Origin: Octopus vulgaris
Taxonomy: Eukaryota
NCBI GenBank assembly: GCA_951406725.2
Contig: OX597815.1
Coordinates: 202,182,001-202,246,000 of the forward strand
Length of the DNA stretch: 64,000 bases
Direction of reading: 5' to 3'
The notes under the pieces were generated by a model. The model had not been told where the DNA came from. It did no database searches and saw only the letters and a list, made by a program, of their open reading frames with translations. The translations under genes were made by a program, and so were the position numbers. Positions 2,326 through 53,092 of this stretch are shown one piece after another; position 1 is the stretch's first letter; every line of letters starts with the position of its first letter.

Positions 2326-5300
2326 TAAGCGACTTGGGTACCTAAGCGATTAGGGTAACTATTCATACAGGACTACCGCAAACAAAATGAAAGGTTGTCG
2401 TACATTAACACAACCCCCTGCAACCCACATATTGTGTTTTAGAACCTGGTCCGTAACAGGATTTCGAAGCTATCTTCGATTTAGTTTAAATTTCGCTTGA
2501 TTTCCATCAATATTATCAGAGTAATGGCAATTTTACTGAAATTGTTTGTTGAGGATTGTGCATACGTCTATGAGGTACTGTATATGCGTGCATGTTATGT
2601 ATATATGTATGTATTATATGCTTCGGACTTTCGGAGTCGATTTTTCGTTTACCTGCAATCTAACTTTTTGCCTTAATGTCCTTCCTTCTTTCTTTTCGAA
2701 GAAATTGTTTGTGCCCAGGTAAGGAGCTGGACGGAATCAGTTGTGTATTAAAATGTCCAAGAGAAGCCTCTTACAATTCCACTAAGATGTTCAGGTTTGG
2801 ATTCAAAGCAACACATGTGCTCGATTGCATATGACCATCTATATATTAACCTATCTTTAGGAAACATATAAATAATGTTCTGTTGTTTATGGTTTGCCAC
2901 AACTGCAATGTCCTAATTCAATATGCACATGATCAGGGATGTTTTGAGAGTGACAACAATTAAATACGCCATTAGGTCTATCAGTTTCTGATGAAATTAT
3001 TTCTTTCACCTGCCAATGCATAGCCACATCTAGCTGTCAGTTTTCACAAACTGCATTGCTATTTACAACATTGTCGATATTTCGGCACATTATGATTGCA
3101 GTCATCACAGGATTTCAATGATAGTCATATACATTTTACTTATACATTAATCTTGGTCTCAAGGAGTTGACATCGAATTTGAAGCTAGTTACGGAGGAAT
3201 TACATTTCTCATCTATTTTCAGATAGTACTGTCGATTCAACCCCCAGGTCAATGACAAAGGCTTAGTATCTTCTAATGATATTTACAATGTATTGAAGAA
3301 CATTACACAAAATCTGGATACAGTACATAATAAGACAATGCTTCCAACCGAAGGGCTTCTATAAAATTTCCGTGTATACAGTTTCATTGAAAACATATAG
3401 GTTGATCCGAGTTTCAAATAATCGACATTTACAGGATGATGTGCATTTCCTTGGTATATTGCTCAAATATAATTTTATATATCTCTTGTGTAATTTATCA
3501 TACATAACCATTTATATATAATGTGATTCAAGGTAACGTGTTACTGAATCATTTGCAACCAATATTAAACAGAAGCTATATAAATATATTCGAAACCAGT
3601 ACTTCGTAGTTACAAAGGAAATTTGTTAAGCATCTGCCATACTGCGCATTATTATGAAATAATGATTATAGGAAACTGCAGCAGCACTCCATATCACCAA
3701 AGTAATTCTCCTAGCGTTACTACTATTGTTATTGGTACTCTGAGTAATCATAATGCTTACTACCTTGCTTCATGACTATCTACCTCACGCAATACGCGTA
3801 ATTTTGCATATGGTTAATCATTAGTTAGTCTTCCTGAAAAATCCCAATAAATTTGTTTTCTGGAATACATTGATCTGAATTGCAGTGCCGTCCCACTTTG
3901 GAAGTGCTTACAAATTGCAAGCTAACTGCATTGGCATAATTAGACTGTGAAAGAGTTCAAATATTTCGGACGCCGCACTTGTATCTCACACTAACGATTT
4001 CTTAAAATACAAAATAAACAAACTAGTACGTCGATCATAATAAACGTTGTGAACATGCACTTGAACCCGACACTTTACTCACGCCCCTTCCTACTCCCAC
4101 GTACACATAAACACATAATGCATCGCACACAGTAATGCGTACACAGAAACATGCATGTATTTATGTATGATATTTTTATATGTAATATAGAATAACATTA
4201 TATTCCATTGCACATGTATGCGTGCATGTGTGTATATGTGTCTATGTATACATATGTATCTATGTATGTGTGTATGTGTCTCTGTATAGATGTGCAATTC
4301 TGTGTGTAATGTAGCGTAGTGTTTTATTGTAACTTGTGTGCTTTTATTCGGAAATCATATTCATTCGATTAACTGAATACGTCAGTACATCTAATATAAT
4401 TTAAAGGTGGTGTAAGTCAGTCTAAACATTTACATTATAACCAGTAAGTAAATATGATAAATTAAGAACTACTTTAAATACTGCGATGTGTGGGCTTATA
4501 CAGAGAAAATAAATTTGTGAAGCACCTAGAAACTTAATATCGATATCTATGAACGCAGAAACGACCAGTTTATATACAATATTAATTTCAGAGATAAACA
4601 GTTTAACTGATACTGTTACACAGACATTACTGACAGGATATTCTGCAATCTATTTAACGACGTTATCAACTAATACAACGTCATAAGGGAAGCAAACTAA
4701 CGCCTTTTTATTCATTCTGTGTAAATCCTGAGAGATTTCGGTTCAAACATTGATAAGCACAGCATCACCGGGCCGTATTTAAGTCAGGGAATAAATTAAA
4801 AGATACTACCGTCGTAGTATTGATAGGAAATTCTTTCCCTCGAGGAATGGTGTTAGCAAGTTGCAATATGGTTGCATACGTGCTTCAGTAATTTGAATGC
4901 GTAAGCTGTCTTAGCTGCTGGTAGCGGGAAAAGGTGTGCTATGAAAGTACAGCTGCTAGGCTGTCTCAAAACTTGGAAATATTCCAAACTCATGACTCTG
5001 ACAGTAACAGAATTATTGTATCATGGGGTGATTGGAACTGATTGTGAGAATTATATAAAACATCAAGTAAAGAATAAAAATTGCTTTATTTCTTCGTCTT
5101 ATTTTGCTTTTTTATGCTACCTGAAATCTAAGCATTTTTTATGCAAGGGTAAGAAATATGTTTACGTACCATCTTAAATGTAAGAAATATATGTATAGTT
5201 ACATTAATATTTCTTAGTAGTTATATTGGCCTTTCTAATGATAGAATATAATGCCGTGACTCCAACCTCTTCGAATTATGCAATAATTAGTTTGCACGAC

Positions 5301-5685: not shown

Positions 5686-8531
5686 ATATATATATAATAC
5701 AATACGTTAAAGGCAATTTCATAAATGTTTAATTTAATCTCCTTTCCCTTCTTTAATAGGACGTATATTTGACAAAAAATTTCACTGATGCGTATATGTA
5801 TTAATACAGATATTTACTGCCATATACATTCGTAACATTCCTGATTTTTTATAATATACACAGCTTACCCCACACAGGGTGTCCATAAGTTTAAGACTTT
5901 GAACGTTTGTGGCTGTAGTAAAAGTACTTGTTTCTAAGCAGTTGCAATTCCAAGGATAAATGGTTTTTACGAAATAAATAGAGAAGCATTTCATTGTAAA
6001 AAAAAACAGTTCGAGCGATGCCATGGTTGGTTAGTTATGGATGGGCATATGGGCTTGTTTAGCAAACTGTAAAATATTTTAACTTGTGAAAGAGAAAGCA
6101 GAAAAGTGGATTTGTCTAGCTGATTCACACCTGCTAAACCATTTGCGAATGGTAAGCTACCAACCACACAAAATCTCTGTGTACGATAGTATTGTGTGTT
6201 GGAGCGGTAGTGTCATAAATTTCCATAAACATCTCACTGTTATTGAATGTTACATATTGACCAACATTAAATTATTTTCAGGTCTTGAAGAGAAAAAGAG
6301 CCTAGCTACAAGCCTACAAATGTTTGTCAAGGTTTATACCGGGAATTGTCACGCAAAATGTATATAAATTGGGAAGAAATGTATTTTTATAAATTAATAC
6401 ACCGAAATATAAGTCATGTAAAGTAAAAGTGCAGTACAATTATCTTTTGATGGCTATGAAGCTGAATCTTTTAAATTGTTAAATATGGCAAGTCCGCAAT
6501 ATTCACGCCGTTTGACAATGTTCATGCTAACGTTCAATGCAACATTTCAGGTATGGCAAAGAGTGTTTAAATTACTCGTGAATGTTCCCTGCGCGTTGAA
6601 TTTTATGCAAGATTATAAAAGCAGTTTAGATATATATAGTAATTGTAAATAATTACATGAATTTCGGTTCAGTTTCAAAAATATTAGTTTAGTCTATATA
6701 ATTTAAATTTTGCTATAATAATTCTTTACTGTTTTCATCTTAGGCACATATAGATGTCTTTGTATTTTAGGAACAATCTAATTTGTTAACCGGATACTAT
6801 TAGTGAAATGTTCCGAGAGTCCCTTCCTATTGAACAAATATGGTGTGAATTTTTCGATAGCACTAATATAGACTTAGTCAAATACAGCAAGACTTCCAGA
6901 TCATGGTTACAATTCTCGTTGACCAGCGAATAGAGATAGTGCAGGTTGTGCAAAGCATGCTGTAACCGGGGACAGCTTTGGTATATACACTGTCCACTTT
7001 TAGAAGCAAATGTGACATGGTTGCTGATAATGAACCAACTATCACAGGAAGTTCTCTAACTCTGGATTCAGGAATTAATTTACCGGCAATGGAGAGATGC
7101 AGTTAATAATAATGAATGGCGTATCCTTTTGAAAATTTAAACTGAGAGTACCTGGTAAAGTTCGGTGTTTAAATATGATAGTACTTGTCAAAATAGTTGT
7201 TCAAATGTATTGAAGTGGTGTACAGAAAAGGCGTCCAACATCTTACCATAGGAATTGCGTATGCCCATTTCTTCTACGTTATGCCGTCATTAAGAGTGCG
7301 TTGTTTGTGCTAAGATGCGTGATTTAAAAAACAGCAACGTTGCACATTGTTAGATGGGCACATAAAGTTGAGCCACAGTGTTTCTACTCCAAAATAATGC
7401 TCAGAACGGCAGCAGCCGAGGCGCGCTACCTGTGTCAGTGAAGTTTGACTGGTATTTAGGTGACAGTCGGCCGACTGTGCTACCATGTTCAAGTAAGATG
7501 CAAGTGATTTATTTTTTCACAAACAACAGTACACTTAGCTGAATTTCTACAACGCATAACTATGTCACAAATTTCGATAACGCCGCTCATTTACAATCTA
7601 TCCGACAGGTTTCCACACTGTTCATGTAAACAATATTACTCAGAAAGTTAGCGTCTATAGGAGAAGAAACAAACGAACTCGTAACATGTGTACTACACAG
7701 ACAAATTGTACTCAACACTTATCAAAGATCGGCAATCTTTGCCCCTCAACCACTATCAAAATCAGTATGGCCTTAGTGAAATCTGAGAGTAGAGGAGGAC
7801 CAAAATGCTATACTGTTTCAGGGTTATTTGGTCCACTAATATATATGGAACTTTCAGAAGGTTTTACTCGGCAGTTTTACCGACAATTTTCTAATATGAG
7901 ATGAAATCTACCATCAAGGTTATACTGTGATGTCTTCCTGTACAAGATGGCTGTACGATGACGATACTAGCGCAAACCCAGCTATCATCCGAGTTGATCG
8001 TGCTAATCGACCCACTGATTTCATTTAGCTAGGTATGGCAAGATTATATTCTACGCTGTGCTTGATATCAAATAACAGAATGGTGGAAAATATCGAAACT
8101 GCAGACAAATAATTTCCACTCTTACCCATGTCTTAGCGACAGTCTGAGTTTTGATTTGGAGAAAACAAATAAGAATATTAGAAGCTACTTTCTCCTGCCC
8201 TGATTTGAGGAATTAGTGAGATGACCAACATAAATGAATCTGCTTTAATCGTACATGTATAGAATGAAGGGCACGTTTGTGTTCTCCGCTCTACAACGTA
8301 ATGCTCGACCTGTGGTATTTACAGTAATTCAGGATAAGTTGGGAGTTCTTTGACTGGCTTTATGTAGAACTTTTACTATTAGAATCTCATTTAGCAAACG
8401 TTTGAATATTTTGTTTTCTCTACCCTTGTTTAGTTTTTATCAGATTGAGAAAACACACTAAGCTCTCTGTAATTTATTTACTGATGACCAGTTAATACTG
8501 CACATGCTTAACAAAAACAAAATATTATATA

Positions 8532-10921: not shown

Positions 10922-11797
10922 TGGTTCCTTCCTAACAGTGTAGGTAAGTCCCATCAAGGACCTCAGACAGATAATACTTTCCTTAAGATGTGCGTTGTGC
11001 TCAATATGACTGCTTTTTGCAAGGCATCAATCTTGCATTGGATTTCCAGTTGCCTCAAGAAGCTTTGAAGTTTCAATGGGATTGAGCCCAACGCGCCGAT
11101 CACCACAGGTATCTCTTTTACATTATCCTCTCGCATTCCATACAGCCTTGCCATTTCCACTTTCAGTTCGGAGAACTTGGTGATTTTTTCAGCCTCTTTA
11201 CTCATAACATTCATGTCATTTGGTATGGCTACATCAATGATCTGACAGTATTTGTCTCCCTTATTCAATATGACAATATCGGGCCGATGGTGTTCGATTA
11301 GACGATCCGTCTGAAAATCATACTCACAGAGTATCGTTACTTTTCCATCCTCCTGCATAATTTTACTTGGTACATGCTCATACCAGTTCTCTGTTACTTC
11401 ATATTGGTATTTACGGAATAAGAACCATTGAAGATACGCACAAATTTTATCGTGGCGGCGCTTGTATTCTTTTTATGCAAGGTTCTAAAATCTACCTAAT
11501 AAGATGGTCACATTTACCACACTCTTTCTACAGAGTCTGCATTTCTGGGTGTCAGAAGCTTTATAGATGTTATACTTCACTGAATTGGTAGCGGAAGCTT
11601 GGTCTTGTGCAGCAATGATCGGGCTTTTGGTGGTACGCTTCAAATCACCTCGCTCAAGCCATGCCCATGATGCGGTATTATACTTAACGTCTTGTGTATT
11701 CCTTTCAAACTATCCATGCATTCTCATTTCAAGATCTTCTTTTACCTTCTCCTCAGTTGTTTGGTTAACCTCTTCGTTGCCCATTATTTCATCTGCA
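10922..11797 (-). mobile_element. 5'-truncated Dong/R4-type non-LTR retrotransposon (restriction-like endonuclease)
   Basis: ORF 10963..11358: QTDRLIEHHRPDIV..IIDVAIP..KEAEKITKF..PVVIGALG..ILRKVLSV. The upstream part is frameshifted and includes LIIAAQDQA on the minus strand. Bounded by ATT/CAT repeats on both sides. Confidence 0.92.
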
Positions 11798-13587: not shown

Positions 13588-13980
13588 TAGTTTTATTTTT
13601 ATAGCGTGCTTTCACTTCACTACCGAGCGCAGCTCTGTGTGCCTTGGGTATGTGCTGTGATTTGTTGTGATGCTCTGATGGTTATTGTATGGAAAGTGTT
13701 CTGCGTAGGATGTGTGCAGTGCCTAGTAGTGCAATTTTATGTATGTTATGTGTGTTTGTAAGTCCTGGTGTTTTTGTTATGTATTTGTCTGAATATTTTT
13801 TTATCATGCCTAATGCACCTACTATGATAGGAATTGTTTCTGTTTTCAGATTCCACATTCTAGTTATCTCTATTTCCAGGTCTTTGTATTTTGAGAGTTT
13901 CTCCATTTCTTTTAGAGACACGTTGTCATCTGCCGGTATTGATACATCAATTAGAAAGCATTTTTTTTCTTCATGATCTC
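13584..13980 (-). mobile_element. Short 3' end of a Dong/R4-type LINE inside an (ATT)n tract
   Basis: ORF 13682..13921: KEMEKLSKYKDLEIEITRMWNLKT..PIIVGALG..HILRRTLSIQ. Pure (ATT)n on both sides (13495-13583 and 13983-14056). Confidence 0.93.
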
Positions 13981-14055
<75 letters not shown>

Positions 14056-14057
14056 CA

Positions 14058-15055
14058 TTGCCTCTGCACAGTTTCTAATGCTTGAGATGTACTATGGTGT
14101 CAGCCGTTCACTACCAGTGAACTAAGGTAACACCTCTTATTTTTCGAGCACCTTCTGGAGTATTCGAGCGGTTCCTAGCAGTGATGGTGTCTACAAGTGC
14201 TCCGCCCTTATTGCAGCCCCTATTTGTCTCACGTACTACTCGGGATTTTTATTCAATGTTCCCAGGGCTCCGACCATTATTGGTACTACTGCTAACTTTT
14301 TCATCGATCACAAAAATCTAAATTTCCACGCTAGCCTGTCATATCTCTCGAATTTTCTTTCTTCCTTGTGGCATACCTTGTTGTCAGCTGGGCATGTTAT
14401 ATCTATGATCCAGCTTAGTTTGTTTTCTTTCTCAATTAATACTATGGCTAGCTTCCCATTTTCTATCTCATGGTCATACTGAATCATAAAATTCCATACG
14501 ATCTATGCATTTCTATTTTCGACGATGCCTTCAGGTTTGTGGTCGTACCAATATTTTACGCTGTCAAGTCCATACTTGGTGCAAAGTGTATATTCCTTCT
14601 GGGCTAATGGCGTTCATTGGCTAGTAATTTGCCATAGGATTTCGCCGTTTTGTCCACAGATTCTGCACTTATCACTTTCTGCTGTGTTGTCTATTCTGTA
14701 TTCTATGTAGTTTGCTCTTAGTGCTTGCTCTTGGGCAGCACAGATTGGAGCCTCCGTTTCCGGTTTTAAATCACTTTTAGTCATCCACAGCCATCTTTTT
14801 TTCTCTGTCTATCTTTTCTTCAACATCACTATAAAATTGTCCATGCATTCTTTTCTTTAGCCACCTATTTTCAGTTTCATTCGTTTTCAGTTTCTTGCAT
14901 CTTTGAAATCTTTCATCCTACAGAAGCCTGACCTTCTTACGTCTAATAATAGCGTTTCTGTGGCATTTTTTATATACCATACTATATTGCTTTCTTTTGC
15001 TCTAATGCTGTGTTCGCATCCAATAAGTCCTGTTCTCCCTCTTTTTCTTGGTAGT
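14058..15055 (-). mobile_element. Decayed Dong/R4-type LINE (different subfamily)
   Basis: The minus strand reads WLWMTKSDLKPETEAPICAAQEQALRANYIEYRIDNTAESDKCRICGQNGE and later IDITCPADNKV..PIMVGALG, with frameshifts. The 3' UTR abuts (ATT)n. Confidence 0.9.
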
Positions 15056-18841: not shown

Positions 18842-18884
<43 letters not shown>

Positions 18885-18903
18885 AAGGCGCGTGGCTCAG
18901 TGG

Positions 18904-18952
<49 letters not shown>

Positions 18953-18969
18953 AAGGCGCGTGGCTCAGT

Positions 18970-19023
<54 letters not shown>

Positions 19024-19043
19024 AAGGCGCGTGGCTCAGTGGT

Positions 19044-19070
<27 letters not shown>
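18842..19070 (+). repeat. Three tandem units of (TA)n + TGTGAAGGCGCGTGGCTCAGTGGT (tRNA-SINE head with A box)
   Basis: The same 24-mer occurs at about 18881, 18949 and 19020, separated by (TA)n. TGGCTCAGTGG matches the Pol III A box TRGCNNARYGG. Confidence 0.85.
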
Positions 19071-19074
<4 letters not shown>

Positions 19075-26611: not shown

Positions 26612-27075
26612 ATAAGATGAAAAATTGTGACTCTGTAATTGACGCTCGGAGGCCACATATTGTGGTAGATAATGGAGGAAAGGCGACCAATTTGATAGAT
26701 ATTGCAATACATGGAGATGCACGAATAAGTAAGAAAAATCTAGAAAAGATGGAAAAGTACAGACTACTAAACGATGAAATTGCAAGGAAAGTAGACTAGT
26801 TGTACGGGTACTTGGAGCACTAACAACTAAGTTCGAGAAATGTATCAAGGAAATTGGAATTCACATGTGAGGAGAGCAAACCCAAATAACTGCTCTGCTG
26901 GTGACAGCTAGGTTTTTGATGTTGGTACTTGGGTGTTGAATATCTCCTACTATAATTAACAACCATTAAAGCTTATAATATCGGGAAAGTGATCGTCTGA
27001 GAGCTCTGACGACAGGCTGCTATCCACTCTCAGAATCCACCAGAACAAACAAGACCGATCGTTCTGAGAAGTAAA
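26612..27075 (+). mobile_element. Decayed 3' end of a Dong/R4-type LINE
   Basis: ORF 26617..26799: CDSVIDARRPHIVV..LIDIAIHGDARI..EKMEKYRLL.DEIAR; followed by (AAT)n. Confidence 0.85.
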
Positions 27076-27125
27076 ACAACAACAATAACAATAACAATAA
27101 TAATAATAACAATAATAATGAAACC

Positions 27126-27202
<77 letters not shown>

Positions 27203-27225
27203 TAATAATAATAATAATAATAATT
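27075..27225. repeat. (AAC)n(AAT)n microsatellite
   Basis: Directly visible. Confidence 0.97.
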
Positions 27226-28395
27226 GGACTGGCCAAATATCTCGAAATATTGAATGACTGGATGCTAAAGCTCGTGGAAAATCACGAGAGACGAAAGAAG
27301 CTTCATTCTATCATGAAGGAAAGCAAAAAATTTGTTATTGATCTCGTGCAGGATACCCAAACTGAACAACCCGAGGCAAGTATGGCAACTATTGTTGCAA
27401 AGAAGGTGAAAATGATGGCAATGAAAAAAGCGCACGAGCAATTGGCTGATAGGTGGGAGGAGAAACCTCTGCACGGCAAATATGTGACCCGCAGCAAAAA
27501 AGCTGATGTTGACCAGAAGCAAACCCATCAGTGACTACGGAGCTCAGGGCTAAAAGCAGAGAGCGAAGGTTTCATCCTGGCAGCTCAAGATCAAAGCCTA
27601 TTAACCCGGAACTACCAGGCCAATGTGATGAAAAATGGAGCAGACCCAAAATGCCGATTCTGCAACGACATGATTGAAACAGTGGACCACCTAATCTCTG
27701 GATGTAAAGTCTTAGCACCAGTGGAGTATAAATTAAGACATGACAGAGTTGGCCAATATCTCCACTGGCTAATACGTCGGCATTACAATATCAAAACTGC
27801 CGACAAGTGGTATAATCACCACCCTGAGGCTGTAACTGAAGGAGAAAATGTAACGATTCTGTGGGACTTTCCAGTACATACAGACCGAACCATCAAGGCC
27901 AATAAACCAGATATTGTTGTGAAAGACCAAAACAATAAAGTTTGCTTATTGATCGACATGAGCATTCCCTGTGATCATAATATCTCAGCGAAAGAGTTTG
28001 ACAAGCTCAGAAAATATAAAGACCTACTCATTGAAATTGAGAAAATGTGGCATCTCAAGGCGGTTACAATACCAGTGATCGTAGGAGCACTAGGAATGAT
28101 CAAGAAGGGAACCGAAAATTATATGAGAATGATCCCTGGCTTACCATCCCTGCAAGAAGTGCAAAAGATTGTCTTAACTGGTACATCACACGTATTGAGA
28201 AGAGCATTGTCGATGTGAGAACTGTTGCTGCTCATGTATTTTAATTTAACTTTAAAAAAAAAAAAAAAAATGAACGAACTACTGAGTTTGGTTTAATGGC
28301 CTACCAATGTATAGTATGAGTTTCTTTGCCCTAGGAGTCGGGAAGACACTCGGCAAGAAATGGAAGCAAATTTGAAAGAAGAAAAAAAAAAAAAA
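27226..28395 (+). mobile_element. Young 5'-truncated Dong/R4-type LINE (CCHC zinc knuckle + restriction-like endonuclease)
   Basis: One frame from 27226 to 28218 with a single TGA at 27532. It encodes KPLHGKY, LKAESEGFILAAQDQSL, CRFC-x8-H-x4-C, RHD, KPDIVV..LID..KLRKYKDL and IVGALG. (AAT)n on both sides. Confidence 0.96.
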
Positions 28396-43992: not shown

Positions 43993-44546
<554 letters not shown>

Positions 44547-50336: not shown

Positions 50337-50753
50337 AAGGCGGCGAGCTGGCAGAATCGTTAGCACGCCGGGCGAAATGCGTAGCCGTATTTCGTCTGCG
50401 GTTACGTTCTGAGTTCAAATTCCGCCGAGGTCGACTTTGTTTTTCATCCTTTCGGGGTCGATAAATTAAGTACCAGTTACGCACTGGGGTCGATGTAATC
50501 GACTTAATCCGTGTGTTTGTCCTAGTTTGTCCCTTCTGTGTTTAGCCCCTTGTGGCTAGTAAAGAAATAGGTATTTCGTCTGCCGTTACGTTCTGAGTTC
50601 GAATTCTGCTGAGGTCGACTTTGTTTTTCATCCTTTCGGGGTCGATAAATTAAGTACCAGTTACGCACTGGGGTCGATGTAATCGACTTAATCCGTGTGT
50701 CTGTCATTGTTTGTCCCTTCTGTGTTTAGCCCCTTGTGGGTAGTAAAGAAATA
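50337..50753 (+). mobile_element. SINE family B, full length plus a tandem 5'-truncated second unit
   Basis: Head GGCGGCGAGCTGGCAGAATCG and B box GAGTTCAAATTCC; the second unit starts at 50571. 14-bp TSD GGTAACAGTTATAA at 50323-50336 and 50754-50767. Confidence 0.94.
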
Positions 50754-50924
50754 GGTAACAGTTATAACAGCGCAAGTGGCTACAACCCCACCGCCACAAC
50801 CACCATCAGTATGACTTCTTCCGTCTGAGCCTCAGAAGAACCCTTTGCACTCTTTCTAGAGGATAACGCCTCTAAATTAGATAAGTTTCAGAAAATAGAG
50901 GGAAGAAGAGCTGAATCAATACTT

Positions 50925-51455: not shown

Positions 51456-52498
51456 AGCTATGTATTTGACACACATAAATGACACGATATATATTATCTT
51501 CCGCGAAATTTGATAAGGATGTGCTCTCGCTTCTAAATTTGTCCGATGGGTCAAAGCTTTTGAAATTTCTTACAATATTTAGACAGTAAACTATTCATTT
51601 CTTTAGTAAATGTTAGACATTAGCACGTATTGTTTCTAAATTATGTCTTAAATATAAAATGAAGAGAATTTCAGGGCACATTGCAAATACAATCTATCTC
51701 ACGACAGACAGTATTTCGCGCATTTGTGTTTTATTGAGAGATGTAATAGCATGCTAACAACGTACATGTTACATTAGAACATGTAAAACGTACATTAGAA
51801 AAATCCGAAGTATTATTTAAAAGATTCAATAGAATCATGAGTAAAAAGTTAAGACCACTCATGATGGTATTAAGATATCAAGCCATCAAGTTGTTTAGAC
51901 TGTTTCATATCATAGATAAGGGCGTTTTCCACATAATTAATTCTCTAAATACGCATATATTTTGCTTACTGTACATGTTGGAATACTGTGCACACAGGCC
52001 AATTGAAAGATAAATAAATTGTAACAATTCTCTTATTTGAAATATGTAAAATTCATCCTATTTACATCGAAATGTTAATACATATGTAAGTAAACAAGAT
52101 AAGATGCCACACACACACACACACACAGAGAGAGAGAGAAAGAGACAGTGGTAGAGAAACTGGATAACGTTGCTGTTTCTGAAACGCCATAATATCTCGC
52201 ATCTGTATTACTAACTCTGATGGGAATCATCAATATAGATATACATATTCAAAAACAAGGTAACAGCGGACGAAAATATAATGTCAGATAAACTCAAATA
52301 TATCAATGGAAATAAAGATAGAATAAAGTTATAAAACATCCAACTAGATTCTTTGGATAAGGAACATATGTCAGAATGTATTTTACTATTTACTATGTCA
52401 AGGACAGCAAAACTCCAAACTCTATTCCCAGAATATCACAGTATTATCCGTCACAACTATATTTTCAAAATTATATACACGGCATCATTATTATTCTG

Positions 52499-52848
52499 GT
52501 TGTATACTGTCAATTTAACGGGACAGTAGGGGATTACACCACCGCTGTTTAGCCCTAGGAAGCATCGACGCTTCCTGATGGCTTCGACACATTTTTTCTT
52601 GTGATCTTATATATTTACGAAGGGGAGACAAACACCCCCAGCAGCCAGGCCTGCATCTAGAGACACGCATGGTTCAGGATCTTTGTCCATCATCGGTCTA
52701 GAGTAGCAGAAGCCCGCCAGCCGCAGATATCTGTCCCGACTTCGTAAATATATATATCTAATATTCAGTGAAGTTTATTCACTGATTACCAAAATCAGAA
52801 ATATTAAATTTCTGAATATCTCATAGAGATATGTACGGTGGTGGGGCG
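52499..52848 (-). mobile_element. About 350-bp retrozyme/Penelope-pLTR-like monomer (family H3) with 12-bp TSD
   Basis: ATTATTATTCTG at 52487-52498 and 52849-52860; homology to 43993-44451; hammerhead-like motif at 52656-52702. Confidence 0.82.
52656..52702 (-). ncRNA. Type I hammerhead-ribozyme-like motif
   Basis: Minus strand: TCTAGA-CCGATGA-T-GGA-CAAAGA-TCC-T-GAA-CCATGCGTGT-C-TCTAGA. Stem II covaries with the 44-kb copy (GGA/TCC versus GGG/CCC). Confidence 0.65.
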
Positions 52849-53092
52849 ATTATTATTCTGTTTAGAGATAATTTTTTCGCAAATAATCTTTTGTTTTAAT
52901 TTTCTTTATTTGTCAGTCTCATCAACTTATTTGACAGTCATATATATATTAGCACTCGAAATAATATCACATTTCAAAGGTAGATCATTTCTTAGTAAAA
53001 AAAATCATGACAGAGGGCAGATTATCAATATAAGGTTAATATTTAAATTTAATGTAAAAAGAATGCAGGACAGTCCGGACAAAATGTTAAAC

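Follow-up and report, generated by a model that had tools for sequence, protein, structure and literature searches.

The closest described relatives of the element reported here are the non-LTR retrozymes of metazoans, exemplified by Rtz353/HHR_Amex2 of axolotl and by those of mussel. As set out in the accessible part of PMC7229834, these are ~350-nt non-coding, self-paired monomers with long target-site duplications (TSDs), found in genomes that also contain Penelope-like elements (PLEs), and in their type I hammerhead a U.U pair occupies the base of helix II, helix III being short and capped by a tetraloop; the octopus unit described below shares all of these traits. Whereas circular RNA has been observed for those retrozymes, the octopus unit is known from sequence. 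The octopus family also differs in consisting mostly of dispersed monomers, partial tandems and inversions, in having C fixed at core position 4 (C4) in the lineage present at our locus and in including copies with a protein-coding cassette, retrozymes being described as non-coding in the same part of PMC7229834. That animal retrozymes depend on or derive from PLEs is the central claim of a preprint (bioRxiv 10.64898/2026.07.22.740005) which, in its available text, covers 31 vertebrates, three insects and one coral and argues from co-occurrence and from similarity to Penelope pLTRs. The support for the octopus unit is of a different kind, namely insertion anatomy (two fixed starts, a tail and inversions), with no pLTR homologue found in the searches described below.

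In PLEs, two reverse transcription start sites bound the tail, targets are AT-rich and uncleaved RNA is the main template (PMC11167929); partial tandems, inverted 5'-truncated copies and tails are reported in the available portion of PMC8557442. The octopus unit resembles PLEs, including PAc Poseidon of Anolis, in its two starts with a tail, AT-rich targets, inverted 5'-truncated arms and a hammerhead lying off the ends, and a U3-A8 core variant is known from PLEs too (accessible parts of PMC11167929; PMC8557442; PMC4209133). Unlike PLEs, the unit has no reverse transcriptase (RT) or endonuclease, its hammerhead stems are of canonical size and its tail is ~60 nt long, against the 30-40 nt quoted for PLEs. 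As for the cassette, it resembles HAL1 (L1 derivatives with ORF1 only) and target-specific Tx1 elements, as far as the consulted sections of PMC5753468 and PMC4494074 describe them, in encoding an ORF1-like CCHC protein only and in having a 3' end in common with an intact APE-RT LINE, and its nesting within other repeats parallels that of Tx1 in Tx1D. Unlike Tx1, its target is a position (immediately upstream of a hammerhead, ~25-35 nt past a TATA-like tract) rather than one sequence, and unlike HAL1 and Tx1 the composite has Penelope-type ends.

The window analysed here is a 64,000-nt stretch of the Octopus vulgaris genome, in which the focal insert occupies 52487..52860. Window positions 52499-52848 are numbered u1-u350, RNA sense being the minus strand. 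The features of the insert are as follows.

52487..52498, plus strand: left TSD, 12 bp, the last 2 nt of which also match the family spacer.
52499..52848, RNA sense minus: near unit-length copy of the ~358-nt monomer, u1-u350 on the plus strand, with its 3' end at fixed end A (u1).
52608..52754, minus strand: long stem carrying the hammerhead, with 15-bp arms at 52608-52622 and 52740-52754.
52656..52702, minus strand: type I hammerhead, with stem I at 52697-52702/52656-52661 and the core at 52690-52696 (C4 at 52695).
52676-52689 and 52663-52672, minus strand: hammerhead stem II (with a U.U base pair) and stem III (with A15.1C at 52672 in the focal copy).
Between 52662 and 52661, minus strand: predicted cleavage point.
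52712..52730, minus strand: cassette site (u214-u232), duplicated around an ORF1-only cassette in other copies and empty here; putative transcription start region.
52745..52757, minus strand: TATA-like tract and putative promoter, preceding the cassette site by ~25-30 nt in RNA sense.
52792..52848, minus strand: 'tail' segment (u294-u350) with two hairpins; it terminates, in tandem copies, at fixed 3' end B, which lies ~60 nt past end A.
52849..52860, plus strand: right TSD, the first 2 nt of which also match the family spacer.

We consider it probable that this ~358-nt non-coding hammerhead family is a non-autonomous Penelope-like element (a non-LTR retrozyme), copied in trans by GIY-YIG Penelope enzymes from either of two fixed sites. 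Much of the local anatomy had been recognised in an original prediction made from the letters of the window: the 12-bp direct repeat is indeed perfect, as is the complementarity of the 15-bp stem arms, the hairpins match their earlier description and zero ORFs of 120 aa or more overlap the insert, in keeping with the statement that the monomer has no meaningful ORF. The minus-strand fold of the insert has an energy of -142.7 kcal/mol (z -10.1), with none of 100 shuffles as good. The unit lies within the 150-450-nt size range of retrozyme monomers and, like a retrozyme, has TSDs longer than 4 bp and no LTR, duplications of 11-15 nt outside pure microsatellite being found at 12 of 52 loci (many loci sit in (TA)n, where TSD limits cannot be set).

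The genome searched amounts to 2.8 Gb in 227 contigs. With the unit as query, 85 matches came from the best 40 scored of 2163 candidates, the copies examined being the top-scoring ones only, whilst a 35-nt hammerhead pattern gave 133 exact matches and its reversed control none. Ends were mapped at 52 loci, 11 duplicate loci having been dropped; two pairs among the 52 are probably both ends of single insertions. Outer 3' ends (n=76) fall overwhelmingly at two sites, A and B, ~60 nt apart: 38 lie at u1-3, 31 at u292-303 and seven elsewhere, making 69 of 76 at the two sites. Position u1 is the query edge, and flanking sequence shows that the copies ending there mostly stop inside an 8-nt spacer. 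The 5' ends (n=28) are scattered from u29 to u350. An inverted arrangement is seen in 25 of the 52 loci and partial head-to-tail tandems are common; locus L029 has two full units and a third, the longest tandem seen is about three units and no long arrays occur among the top matches. The original prediction had envisaged copy ends as possibly dispersed permutations, which is contradicted by the two fixed 3' sites and by the lack of any mapped end at the cleavage site (u163/164), the nearest being at u154 and u170; a second set of 70 ends likewise contains none there, the nearest being at u161 and u168. Two fixed 3' ends with an optional tail, 5' truncation, inverted 5' arms and partial tandems are together the anatomy of Penelope-type insertion. 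Two other candidate features were rejected: the ends near u230 that suggested a truncation hotspot mostly proved to be cassette junctions, and a 2.3-kb spacing in L020 and L025-L028, considered as a PLE ORF between pLTRs, came from duplicates with identical flanks inside another RT-like sequence.

A type I hammerhead is real at the level of the family, and its covariation is strong but not clean. A motif scan of the collected loci found 109 hammerhead motifs, 75 of them distinct, from which 28 natural copies were hand-picked across lineages and aligned. In this alignment 91.4% of cells are paired and two-sided change is seen at 14 of 18 pairs, including all six of stem I, although the stem I statistics are inflated because the set was hand-chosen and motifs were admitted only with 4 bp or more of stem I pairing (5 or more for row L089, from an earlier scan), and related rows are not independent. 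The 3-8 pair is CG in 22 copies and UA in five (C3-G8 to U3-A8), and the core letters are invariant whilst the stems and the 3-8 pair covary. None of 500 shuffles reaches the pairing or covariation of the hammerhead, and slid structures are 23-49% paired. Outside the hammerhead the RNAalifold analysis that had been proposed gives less: in 15 close full units three of 87 pairs covary, and these stems are therefore conserved but unproven by covariation.

These observations bear on whether the repeat might instead be a fragment of a MITE or DNA transposon, or an ordinary satellite, with a chance hammerhead look-alike, the outcome that the original prediction had named as fatal to it. Many copies do resemble inverted-repeat elements, and the proposed Rfam scan matched no hammerhead family, either in the whole 64-kb window (E<=1) or in 52450-52900 (E<=10). 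Against this, inversion points differ between copies, TSDs are 11-15 nt long, 3' ends are fixed whilst 5' ends are not, and the core letters are invariant amid covarying stems and a covarying 3-8 pair; fixed terminal inverted repeats with a constant short TSD, as expected of a MITE or DNA transposon, were not found among the copies. End anatomy and hammerhead covariation largely exclude this reading, which we regard as extremely improbable.

The hammerhead of the focal copy itself, placed by the original prediction at the same position, departs from the canonical core at three points: C4, U10.1-U11.1 and A15.1C. The first two are traits of the focal lineage and the third is an extra in the focal copy; among 100 pattern matches listed, C4 is present in 96 and the variable stem II pair is G-C or A-U in 95. 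U10.1-U11.1 and U4C are each known as natural hammerhead variants, and C4 reduces activity in vitro (both from the accessible part of PMC3088659). The same U.U occurs in axolotl HHR_Amex2, whose cleavage is more efficient in dimeric form, according to the portion of PMC7229834 that covers it. Energy folding of the focal lineage gives no catalytic three-way junction but an alternative, non-catalytic helix that pairs the core with stem III, and the family ribozyme is predicted to be weak and dimer-dependent. Loop 2 and the stem I bulge of the unit hammerhead appear to resemble those of the Schistosoma type. Given its A15.1C, the ribozyme of the focal copy is probably dead.

A second copy lies at ~44 kb of the window and comprises three parts.

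43993..44050, minus strand: tail (u301-u350) and 8-nt spacer.
44051..44238, minus strand: u1-u185 arm, 5'-truncated within the hammerhead.
44243..44449, plus strand: inverted arm (u1-u203) that runs out into (CT)n(AT)n; G8A, uncompensated by C3U, breaks the 3-8 pair of its hammerhead.

The hammerhead of the inverted arm is likely inactive on account of its G8A. The original prediction had reported that this copy joins the two ends of the unit with 4 extra nt between them. A head-to-tail junction is present, but the copy is no simple tandem: it consists of a tail, a unit start and an inverted arm, which is truncated at its 5' side and closes with (CT)n(AT)n. In the family the spacer measures 8 nt rather than 4, the smaller figure arising because 2+2 nt of it overlap the focal TSD as microhomology. 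Nor is there support for reading the joined ends as a sign of a circle or circular permutation, as had been supposed, the junction being one of the pair of fixed 3' ends that characterise Penelope reverse transcription; because of this Penelope 'tail' end signature, the unit junction is most likely a reverse transcription start site. In three copies the junction region folds locally (z -3.1 to -3.9) and leaves an AC-rich stretch unpaired at end A, which may be analogous to the AC-rich RT start described in PMC11167929. The corresponding tail region of a sister unit (see below) folds no better than shuffles.

Other repeats in the window include a head-to-tail pair of 184-nt repeats that are 95% alike, at 50387-50757, and a short GC-rich motif found four times between (AT)n tracts at 18842-19074, apparently truncated SINE starts. 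C-terminal fragments of non-LTR RT proteins lie at 27010-28218, 10963-11472 and 13682-14074, with a weak zf-RVT match for 27535-28218.

A source of Penelope enzymes is at hand. A GIY-YIG search, in which the best 150 of 6136 candidates were scored, led to intact 781-aa RT+GIY-YIG ORFs in all five such loci fetched (L133-L137), and autonomous elements are present in the genome. These five loci belong to a young two-ORF Penelope-like family, with an upstream ORF of up to 479 codons and the 781-codon RT-GIY-YIG ORF, many intact copies, (TA)n targets and a U3/A8 hammerhead-like motif in the pLTR. In a second PLE family (L138/L142) the pLTR hammerhead has C4 and U.U, as in the unit. No sequence common to the unit and the pLTRs of either family was found, and blastn of the unit against 34 GIY-YIG loci (of the 6136 candidates) gave AT-tract matches only, with no autonomous PLE that has the unit as its pLTR. 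Copies of the unit contain no RT-EN ORF of their own, as an autonomous PLE would. A sister lineage with a monomer of ~345 nt can be aligned with the unit over its full length, although its divergence puts it beyond the reach of blastn; its alignments score 70 and 69, against a shuffled maximum of 44.5 for the first.

Might the unit be the pLTR of an autonomous Penelope family still to be found, and its copies 5'-truncated remnants of that family? All the PLE end signatures are present, and in a single case (L101) a sister unit is joined directly to a truncated PLE ORF. This join is a chimera, because it cuts the endonuclease domain. Moreover, 5' extensions of the unit run into another unit, an inversion or an ORF1 cassette but in no case into a PLE ORF (the 30 loci retrieved with u1-122 are all without a PLE match), whilst the sister lineage retains a monomer of similar length. 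We thus think it improbable that the unit is such a pLTR, and prefer a non-autonomous element served in trans.

As regards the template, the original prediction of a non-autonomous ribozyme retroelement mobilised from a multimeric or circular RNA holds good in that TSDs, tandems, a covarying hammerhead and the absence of an ORF together argue for a non-autonomous, hammerhead-bearing retroelement with an RNA template of more than unit length; what falls away is the pointer to a circle from the joined ends. Copies read through the hammerhead cleavage site. Some insertions need multimeric transcripts, since their templates exceed one unit and the L029 trimer mixes two subfamilies (two units 1.5% apart and a third 9-10% apart) whilst other overlaps are near identical; circles are neither required nor excluded, and the unit may possibly exist as circular RNA. 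One could suppose that the insertion template is a hammerhead-processed circular monomer, with tandems made by rolling reverse transcription round one circle, a scheme compatible with Penelope copying. It would suit the strong self-pairing of the unit, the match in size to the mussel and axolotl retrozymes that form circRNA (accessible part of PMC7229834), the read-through of the cleavage site, which fits a ligated circle, and the near-identical tandem overlaps of L038 (0/96), L100 (3/230) and L002 (3/186). One circle cannot, however, produce the unit mix of L029, and divergence is no lower in direct-repeat overlaps (median 4.8%, 37 overlaps) than in inverted ones (4.1%, 63 overlaps). In addition, unprocessed RNA is the main PLE template (PMC11167929) and C4 lowers activity in vitro (PMC3088659, in the part concerned). 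On balance we consider a circular template unlikely. When contigs of four presumed-RNA runs (none recorded as RNA) were compared with composite L066, family sequence was found in all four; one join skips the cassette and another goes back across it, such contigs being blind to strand, ends and circles.

On the preferred reading, then, a Penelope enzyme would nick AT-rich DNA and take as template a multimeric or circular RNA left uncleaved, priming at either A or B, with priming at B adding the ~60-nt tail. Reverse transcription would read through the hammerhead site and sometimes continue beyond one unit; for the focal copy, cDNA synthesis would have started at A and ended with only a few nt of the full unit left to copy. 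In some copies an ORF1-only L1/Tx1 cassette would have entered just upstream of the hammerhead, with composites then moved whole by the Penelope route.

Composites are a minority of copies, with a cassette of ~1.7 kb between 14-21-nt duplications just upstream of the hammerhead. The cassette occurs in at least eight distinct loci among ~70 found by unit-only queries; in L031 and L032, for example, a ~1.66-kb insert lies between duplicated u214-230, and that of L031 contains an open frame of 483 codons encoding a CCHC knuckle. The ORF family is large (best 88 scored of 51510 candidates). Its zf-CCHC match is just below cut-off, with ZCCHC3/CCHC look-alikes at 0.91-0.92; a word-indexed search found no homologue of the protein and a HMMER representative search gave 422 matches. 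The L093 cassette has ~30% identity to the upstream ORF of an APE-RT LINE and shares its 3' terminus, having, like HAL1, an ORF1-like protein only and a 3' end in common with an autonomous L1-group LINE. The label L1/Tx1 for cassette and LINE is our presumption, from domain order. Comparison of 17 copies, chosen because their open frames are long, gives a median dN/dS of 0.10 over the 103 pairs whose dS exceeds 0.4 and of 0.34 over 16 close pairs; judged from such comparisons, the cassettes, which lie just upstream of the hammerhead in several diverged lineages, are under purifying selection.

The position of the cassette is also apparent when loci are chosen by protein alone. Amongst the best 30 ORF loci the 3' end could be called in 27, of which 16 show a hammerhead core at a distance of 29-69 nt from AATAAA on its 3' side, a count that excludes one spurious match, L081. 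Two further loci reach a hammerhead core beyond a second cassette and several have mutated cores; none follows the cassette in L071, L075 or L091. The duplications are host-specific and start ~21-36 nt after a TATA-like tract, a spacing that comes without a statistical control and from mostly homologous hosts. Cassettes with duplications 26-32 nt after a clear TATAAAA box are found in L071 and L109, in a related repeat without the hammerhead. A cassette also lies just upstream of a type I hammerhead that is unrelated and whose stem II is very long (L064 / L110:~5850-6020, plus strand), and a Schlafen AlbA_2 domain ORF (L103:1594-2370, plus strand) adjoins two hammerhead-like motifs, near 2937 and 3286, that have a long stem II and are inverted relative to each other.

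Other routes can be considered for the joining of cassette and unit. Rather than being a targeted DNA insertion, the cassette may be an ancestral part of the element, or reverse transcription may have switched templates, leaving the 5' end of a unit RNA for the 3' end of a cassette RNA: cassettes also stack at the 5' ends of the LINE and of each other, the L091 cassette is fused to an apparent U1 snRNA start, and poly(A) is absent at most junctions with hammerhead units. Template switching has to contend with the host-specific 14-21-nt duplication on both sides and with the upstream host sequence that continues beyond it. An ancestral origin is opposed by the presence of a single young cassette lineage (dS 0.07-0.15) in L031, L110 and L111, three hosts unrelated to one another, and by cassettes with dS >1 in related units; because of these two observations, insertion is better seen as repeated. 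The notion of a ~2-kb ancestor from which the short form arose by deletion was dropped on the flanking duplications and the dS pattern. We rate these two alternatives as rather unlikely and favour insertion of the cassette into the unit.

Several observations concern the LINE and its modules. The APE-RT LINE has many intact copies, with cassettes stacked at its 5' end. In L093 and L095 (G000:C4:70032500-70052499), five tandem ~1.79-kb ORF1-only cassettes, 98.7-98.9% identical, lie directly upstream of further ORF1 modules and the APE-RT LINE, and comparable arrays of ORF1 modules, diverged in sequence, are found ahead of further LINE copies (L187-L193). The same degenerate ORF1-like sequence follows the LINE 3' end in most of 30 copies (L147-L176), some of which are in tandem at ~5.26-kb spacing. 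At L091:~2900-3050 (minus strand) the cassette 5' end is fused, within a (TG)n tract, to ~27 nt of what we take to resemble the start of U1 snRNA.

Once formed, composites appear to have moved as one piece. L103, L105 and L107 lie on different contigs and have one shared junction, close cassettes (dS 0.04-0.08), and Penelope tails and inversions at their ends, which supports co-mobilisation. Targeting is not demonstrated for the autonomous LINE itself, because the 3' ends of its best 30 copies abut neither hammerhead units nor the unit. With a little less than even confidence, we propose a three-tier parasite, in which ORF1-only LINE modules would home by position to the retrozyme transcription start, borrow its promoter and spread via Penelope enzymes as protein-coding retrozymes.

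The basic kind of element has already been described (PMC7229834 and bioRxiv 10.64898/2026.07.22.740005, in their available parts), whilst the cargo-bearing form is apparently unreported: a literature search found no description of a cephalopod retrozyme or of an ORF1 cassette in a retrozyme, although supplements or Repbase entries may list the family. The family offers anatomical evidence for Penelope machinery copying an animal retrozyme and names two candidate priming sites. It also reveals a hammerhead core variant overlooked by Rfam at the focal locus and present in a resident Penelope pLTR. Finally, composites with cargo hint that a LINE-derived element can target a position and that retroelements of different classes can be mobilised together, neither of which turned up in the published work searched; if the three-tier arrangement is true, one RNA would depend on two unrelated reverse transcriptases.
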